Source: Eledone cirrhosa (lineage: Eukaryota). Taken from it: 64,000 nt of DNA. Below, in pieces: positions 34,478 to 34,833 of this stretch (the first letter of the stretch is position 1; each line of letters starts with the position of its first letter). The translations under genes and the position numbers were made by a program. The stretch lies in the NCBI GenBank assembly GCA_964016885.1, contig OZ024742.1, positions 68,324,001 through 68,388,000 on the forward strand, written 5' to 3'. Below the pieces are notes generated by a model. The model searched no databases. It worked only from the letters and a program-made list of their open reading frames with translations, and was not told the DNA's origin.

Positions 34478-34833
34478 GAAAAAGAGATGAAATCGAAAAT
34501 GCAACTGGAGTCTTATTTTTTTTTTAAATATATATATTTATTTGGTTCCTTTACCGGTTTCGCAGTTCTTCTGCTTTTCAAAAGGTGAGTTGAGATGAAG
34601 GGTCTGTGGTTTTTCTCACATCATGTGAGAAAAACCACAGACCCTCCATCTCAACTCACCTTTTGAAAAGCAGAAGAACTGCGAAACCGGTAAAGGAACC
34701 AAATAAATATATATATTTTTTAAAAAAATAAGACTCCAGTTGCATTTTCGATTTCATCTCTTTTTCTTTATACTTTCACTCGTGTAGGACACCTCGGTTA
34801 TTTTTCATTTTGTAAAAAAAACCTCACTTTCTA
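34478..34833 (+). mobile_element. Family B mini-PLE: about 143-bp near-perfect hairpin + about 65-nt tail, in (TA)n
   Basis: 34478-34621 is the reverse complement of 34623-34767; the tail recurs at 21598-21672; related pieces at 35905-36020 (+) and 19005-19050 (-). Confidence 0.85.
34659..34696 (+). ncRNA. Minimal type I hammerhead with U3/A8 core
   Basis: cctt-TTGAAAA-gcag-aagaa-ctgc-GAAA-ccgg-TA-aagg; mirror copy at 34548-34585 (minus). Confidence 0.8.

Follow-up and report, generated by a model that had tools for sequence, protein, structure and literature searches.

A fold-back insertion with a U3-A8 hammerhead motif, very probably the end of a Penelope-like element, in Eledone cirrhosa

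Insertions of Penelope-like elements (PLEs) are truncated at the 5' end, where they often carry an inverted, likewise 5'-truncated copy, and have a tail of 30-40 bp at one end; (TA)n serves as target in several clades, and for Penelope-13_HM the published list gives an inverted copy together with one hammerhead per strand (Craig et al, 2021, PMC8557442). Two internal start sites of the reverse transcriptase delimit the tail, AT-rich DNA is cleaved and the hammerhead cuts only with the element's protein, and mutating it left PAc insertion in vitro unaffected (Frangieh et al, 2024, PMC11167929). The Cercyon PLEs of Schistosoma mansoni carry hammerheads with a U3-A8 pair (~1300 matches) beside canonical C3-G8 motifs (~2000), and the published alignment includes a PLE-associated row, S. 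mansoni(4), with a UUGAAAA core identical to the one described below; the one S. mansoni motif reported as tested gave no cleavage as a monomer and low cleavage as a dimer or trimer (Cervera and de la Pena, 2014, PMC4209133). That paper already contains the U3-A8 pair and the UUGAAAA core, together with a palindromic stem III and the model of a dimer. A pair between positions 3 and 17 is also on record, the C3-G17 trap being the presumed cause of strongly impaired minimal hammerheads (PMC3884650).

The locus described here lies at 34472-34833 of a 64,000-nucleotide stretch of Eledone cirrhosa DNA (the window) and is, with a probability of about 0.87, the fold-back end of a PLE with a hammerhead variant of this published kind. 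It is referred to as family B, to separate it from a second hairpin-and-tail family in the window, family A. As in the Schistosoma Cercyon hammerheads, the motif is of type I with a short stem I, a U3-A8 pair, UUGAAAA and a palindrome at 15.2-16.2; unlike the motifs in that paper it has a stem II of 4 bp without the extra base after A9, and the palindrome is ACCGGU rather than ACGU (PMC4209133). Position 17 is A in family B, compared with U17 and G17 in two U3-A8 rows of the supplement to the same paper. The back-to-back 3' ends, the tail at one end, the (TA)n and the presence of one hammerhead per strand are as in the PLE insertion unit (PMC8557442; PMC11167929), which differs in its shorter tail (30-40 bp against ~61-66 bp), whereas the family B copies in the window lack an ORF and have clustered 5' ends (3/3). 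With the Hydra clade the locus shares the (TA)n target, a hammerhead near the 3' end, a tiny palindromic stem III and a variable 10.1/11.1 pair, although all 26 Hydra rows of File S2 are C3-G8, in a table whose descriptor may not admit U3-A8, and the exact acc/ggt stem III of family B is found in Chlamys-2_cBra, but with C3-G8 (PMC8557442). Non-LTR retrozymes resemble family B in being protein-less and PLE-related with a type I hammerhead, but form direct tandem arrays, whereas family B copies are inverted or single and carry a PLE tail (bioRxiv 10.64898/2026.07.22.740005).

Layout of the insertion and its hammerhead motif

The window is mostly ~30-40% GC per bin, with many (TA)n, (GT)n and (GATA)n runs and decayed retroelement frames. 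Within it, 34472-34772 is the strongest inverted repeat found outside microsatellites, with 150-bp arms that, together with the tail, make up a repeat of ~360 bases (Table 1). The arms are mismatched at five places: a C/T difference inside them, three positions explained by one displacement of a T/A run, and a position at the outer edge. Differences of this kind suggest that the insertion is young. The locus combines an inverted 5'-truncated copy and a tail at one end, as expected of a PLE insertion, with a hammerhead near the 3' end, as expected of a pLTR. The predicted cut site at H17 lies ~75-80 nt from the tail-less end and ~140 nt from the tail end.

Table 1. Positions of family B insertions, their parts and PLE protein fragments in the window
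Feature	Positions	Strand	Details
PLE protein fragment, Hydra-clade CxCx5C linker	18650-17620	-	
Family B relative, diverged, TA-rich flanks	18841..19074	-	19069-19004: 74.2% over 66 columns; only 5' part aligns well
Family B 3' fragment with tail, without hammerhead	21596..21673	+	absent from the earlier note
PLE endonuclease fragment, between (TA)n runs	26063-25764 (to 25520)	-	
(TA)n microsatellite, left flank	34441..34477	.	last bases, 34472-34477, readable as arm or target
Left arm: inverted, tail-less copy of the element 3' end	34472..34621	-	unambiguous edge ~34478; 145/150 identical to right arm
Mirror hammerhead copy	34548..34585	-	U3 at 34581, A17 at 34552
1-nt spacer at fold-back centre	34622..34622	.	
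Right arm: element 3' end (pLTR part)	34623..34772	+	loose ends into (AT)n behind 34768, 34772
Hammerhead, minimal type I, U3-A8	34659..34696	+	4-bp stems I and II; palindromic ACCGGU replaces stem III; predicted cut after A34692 (GUA)
One-sided tail, ~61-66 bp	34773..34833	+	loose ends into TA-rich sequence behind 34832
(AT)n microsatellite, right flank	34834..34865	.	
Family B relative, diverged, tail-less	35894..36031	+	75.5% over 151 columns; core intact, stems partly broken
PLE endonuclease fragment	49070-48489	-	

The 38-nt fold agrees exactly with that given in an earlier note on this DNA. Stem I pairs CCUU (34659-62) with AAGG (34693-96) and is followed by UUGAAAA (34663-69); GCAG (34670-73) and CUGC (34679-82) form stem II, after which come GAAA (34683-86), CCGG (34687-90), U16.1 (34691) and A17 (34692). 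The earlier note did not include the minus-strand mirror hammerhead (34585-34548). All elements of a minimal PLE type I core are present (N3-U-G-A-N-N8-A9, GAAA, U16.1, H17 and a Watson-Crick 3-8 pair), and helices I and II, with 4 + 4 Watson-Crick pairs, are above chance. A type I hammerhead scan allowing six 3-8 combinations matched the window twice, at 34663 (+) and at its mirror 34581 (-). The strict fold of a second scan occurred three times in the window, as the two mirror copies and one C3-G8 motif, against none in 60 windows shuffled block-wise by dinucleotide. Among the 82 distinct matches to the bare core words in viral contigs (at least 120 matches listed) none had both stems of at least 3 bp. 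No Rfam family matched across the window at the gathering score, and on 34622-34840 the eight weak matches at E up to 10 included no hammerhead; the C3-G8 motifs in the window are likewise missed by Rfam. On its sequence the motif is a real hammerhead-type fold, and its cleavage is a prediction.

The surrounding 34270-36110 is a single microsatellite field in which insertions of family B, family A (35574) and diverged family B (35894) are nested, and a short word preceding the (TA)n at ~35530 recurs at ~35855. Several decayed LINE copies are present (8055-10586; 31484-33937 (-)), one of which ends just left of the (GATA)n beside family B; from their frames we take them to be Tx1/L1-like. A 110-bp direct repeat at 36113-36235 and 36637-36783, each copy of which runs into a short inverted repeat (26-bp arms, 36721-36783), is possibly a third fold-back family. 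On the minus strand, the frame at 40808-41260 contains a CCHC-like finger and, after it, a motif of restriction-enzyme-like endonucleases, with no Pfam match; this is presumably the combination typical of REL-type non-LTR retroelements.

Copies, conservation and core types

BLAST and profile searches of the window found three family B insertions besides 34472-34833. Two of these are the relatives near 35936 and 19005 that had been noticed before, and both indeed retain TTGAAAA and CCGGTA. The copy near 35936 has a broken stem II, while that near 19005 has GCAA in place of GAAA (A13 to C). Such a change of A13 in a hammerhead is expected to abolish cleavage. In all three core-bearing insertions the 5' starts fall within ~7 nt of one another, some 35-40 nt upstream of U3, and two of the three start directly after (TA)n. 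This clustering, seen in three copies, may mean that truncation favours this site or that a short non-autonomous element really begins there.

In the two diverged relatives 31 of the 32 positions of core and palindrome are kept (core 23/24, palindrome 8/8), compared with 141/174 (81%) in the aligned flanks; the one-sided Fisher p values of 0.016 against all flanks and 0.046 against the 5' flank alone are inflated, since the relatives were noticed partly through these same core and palindrome words. A core conserved no better than its flanks had been named in the earlier note as one outcome that would speak against the ribozyme, and among the three copies the core is the better conserved. The stems have changed more than the core (stem II 10/16, stem I 7/9 aligned). 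In pair counts from these three copies only one two-sided change was seen, a number equalled in 161 of 500 shuffles, and the fourth stem II pair depends on the placement of a gap. U3-A8 is the consensus in all three core-bearing insertions, as are U3 and A17 together, and does not represent decay of one copy; as the diverged copies keep core and palindrome, it is best regarded as a trait of the family.

Sequencing runs indicate that the family is abundant. Words of 34622-34833 were present in 18 of 24 runs, with half or more of the words in 6. Alignment to 34622-34833 recovered 2427 contigs in X1, 1983 raw reads in X22, 7 contigs in X4 and 1 contig in X10, where X1 and X22 derive from organism A (X1 possibly being the window's own sample), X4 from organism B and X10 from organism G; the aligned contigs and reads covered 34734-34833, the half away from the ribozyme. 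Loose ends run into (AT)n behind 34768 (14 in X1, 168 in X22, 1 in X4) and behind 34772 (55 in X1, 1 in X4), and into TA-rich sequence behind 34832 (4 in X1, 96 in X22). Family B is therefore present at high copy number in organism A, and its 3' end falls at two positions, one with and one without the tail. Its sequence pattern was not found in metagenome contigs, and the sole match to a looser pattern in GTDB genomes (L121), lacking both the stems and flank similarity, was set aside as chance. No tRNA was found in the element. A bacterial promoter and terminator scan, a type of scan not applicable to an animal genome, gave 0 sites. Pairing of the 5' end with the tail was considered as a means of setting the 5' boundary and rejected, the overall fold being no better than shuffles (z +1.04, -0.41).

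As had been claimed, families A and B are not similar, sharing no more than chance words (best E 0.14). Family A contains one copy with a complete hammerhead, at 59749-59860 (-), which has U3-A8, a long stem II, C17 and a stem III of 6 bp with a palindromic loop. The other six loci (23878, 24205, 29884, 35574, 38372 and 38883) end short of the first core box, and three of them are fold-back hairpins with different centres. The family A tail (23995-24070, 35712-35774, 38882-38810) contains CTCTAC...TATTGAGTAC and looks, by eye, similar to that of Hydra-2_Amil (PMC8557442, supplement).

A relaxed scan of the window identified U3-A8 at 34663/34581 and at 59852 (taken as family A), and C3-G8 at 29509, 45758 and, weakly, 54462. 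The motifs at 29503-29545 (+) and 45750-45838 (+) are canonical C3-G8 hammerheads of PLE type, both with GUA, and the former resembles Hydra-clade motifs (act/agt stem III). Both core types coexist in this window, as they do in Schistosoma.

Folding and the pair across the cut site

The earlier note had proposed from the palindrome that cleavage is dimeric. With A15.1-U16.1 imposed, the ViennaRNA monomer lies at +0.7 kcal/mol with a pair probability of 2e-5, whereas a double hammerhead joined by a 6-bp ACCGGU duplex reaches -18.9 kcal/mol, and the ACCGGU self-duplex on its own -8.3 kcal/mol; these energies support a requirement for a dimer, in agreement with the published model. The proposal does not hold in cis at this locus. 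The two ribozyme copies at 34472-34833 are inverted with respect to one another, so no dimer would form there in cis; tandem copies in direct orientation within a parent element, or a pair of separate RNAs, would be required. Transcription through the locus would yield an RNA predicted to fold as a single duplex (-243 kcal/mol), in which the probabilities of stems I and II are 0.0.

U3 also has a second potential partner. In the monomer a U3-A17 pair is predicted with a probability of 0.56, and the minimum-energy fold of the dimer (-20.3 kcal/mol) has both U3-A17 pairs formed, compared with -18.9 kcal/mol when they are open, a cost of only ~0.7 kcal/mol per ribozyme. By analogy with the C3-G17 trap, this pair across the cut site predicts weak cleavage. 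From the modelling, measurable cleavage of a tandem or stabilised construct would have roughly even odds, and that of the genomic hairpin a chance near zero. The literature searched gave no cleavage data for a natural U3-A8 PLE ribozyme. Variants with U3-A8 and A17 may already be listed by Lunse, Weinberg and Breaker.

Origin of the insertion

It is likely that the element is a short, 5'-truncated, protein-less PLE end, and any cleavage by its ribozyme would be weak and would depend on a dimer or on help from protein. Going by published PLE biology, the GIY-YIG endonuclease of a parent element would have nicked (TA)n, and its reverse transcriptase would have initiated at one of two internal RNA sites, so that one end has the tail and the other lacks it. 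Synthesis would have halted ~40 nt upstream of the ribozyme, and the inverted copy would then have been joined at the 5' end. Selection may have kept the ribozyme in the lineage of the parent element, in which the ACCGGU words of tandem copies or of two RNAs would pair into a 6-bp helix III. The ribozyme at 34472-34833 itself would be inactive, its read-through RNA folding into a 150-bp duplex, and the U3-A17 pair would lower activity further if it acts like C3-G17. Against the PLE end stand the tail, which is longer than published, and the clustered 5' starts, which would not be expected from random truncation. The stem pair changes that do not exceed shuffles, the stems being less conserved than the core, and the lack of a hammerhead match in Rfam also count against this reading.

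So does coding content, since none of the four family B insertions in the window has an attached ORF. PLE protein fragments are present elsewhere (Table 1), and the ORF at 18650-17620 has motifs fitting the Hydra clade (RWK, DKT, CxCx5C) and is not linked to family B; in 40 relatives of this ORF CxCx5C was found in 36, a DKT-like word in 31, RW[KRT] in 18 and DKG in 2. The whole of 18650-16555 (-) appears as a Hydra-clade PLE that is frameshifted and 5'-truncated; its 3' region is unusually long (~1 kb) and ends in (TA)n, and near 16620 there is a C3-G8-like motif in degenerate form. The family B copy at 19005 is immediately upstream of this ORF and was considered as its pLTR. This was rejected, because (TA)n intervenes between the two and the ORF is followed by a separate 3' end of its own near 16555. 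Queries with PLE proteins gave no confirmed loci in metagenome and viral contigs. Family B might also be the end of a Naiad element overlooked by descriptors that require C3-G8, but this gained no support from the 5 of 54 Naiad 3' ends read by eye, which showed no likeness. Six short words from families A and B had no match in the supplement of PMC8557442, a text in which line breaks can hide matches.

The nearest alternative would keep the insertion mechanism of the PLE end and change the nature of what is copied: family B would be a short, SINE- or retrozyme-like PLE derivative of ~210 nt with a fixed 5' end and its own transcript, copied in trans by a PLE protein. Hammerhead-bearing PLE derivatives that are non-autonomous have been described (bioRxiv 10.64898/2026.07.22.740005), and the shared starts, two of them right after (TA)n, and the many copies in organism A are as such an element would have them. 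Those starts come from three copies, however, there is neither a tRNA head nor the tandem array that is the defining trait of non-LTR retrozymes in that preprint, the overall fold is not stable (z = +1.04), and family A has variable 5' ends, as truncation predicts; we regard this reading as possible but doubtful. Equally doubtful is that the ribozyme is a dead relic, in which drift in a master copy fixed U3-A8 and A17 and which no longer cuts in any setting. The U3-A17 pair in both predicted folds would fit a relic, given that N3-N17 traps strongly impair minimal hammerheads (PMC3884650), as would covariation that does not exceed shuffles in three copies and hammerhead mutants without effect on PAc insertion in vitro (PMC11167929). 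On the other hand, core and palindrome survive ~25% divergence, a route from C3-G8 to U3-A8 needs two changes that restore a pair, and the small energetic cost of the trap would be a weak block.

Much less probable is the suggestion of the earlier note that U3-A8 is a lineage-wide ribozyme variant of this genome. It drew on two unrelated families carrying the pair (34663; 59852), but family A contributes only one of its seven loci, C3-G8 hammerheads occur in the same window and Schistosoma also has both kinds (PMC4209133), so that this part of the suggestion was not borne out. Least credible of all is that the palindrome is a MITE-like fold-back DNA element or an assembly artefact and the hammerhead fold chance. 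Near-perfect inverted arms and the lack of coding capacity are what such an origin would give; the one-sided tail, the single-arm copies at 35894 and 19074, the absence of the fold from the 60 shuffles, the arm differences at an internal base and a homopolymer run, and the occurrence of both kinds of 3' end in raw reads argue against it. The end of a PLE remains the preferred reading.

A more elaborate version, which we consider unlikely, would make family B a PLE derivative that succeeds without a protein of its own, has a fixed 5' end and carries a self-locking U3-A8/A17 hammerhead, U3-A17 covering the cut site until a dimer or a PLE protein switches U3 to A8. If true, this would be a natural conformational switch and would allow selection of PLE hammerheads for regulated cleavage to be tested cleanly, and descriptors restricted to C3-G8 would be missing whole high-copy PLE families. 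Since the U3-A17 pair gives a sharp prediction for activity, a high-copy family with U3-A8 and A17 is a usable test case. As the fold-back end of a PLE, family B adds one PLE family with a published core variant, in a genome that holds both U3-A8 and C3-G8 hammerheads, and motifs of its type are missed by Rfam and by searches limited to C3-G8.
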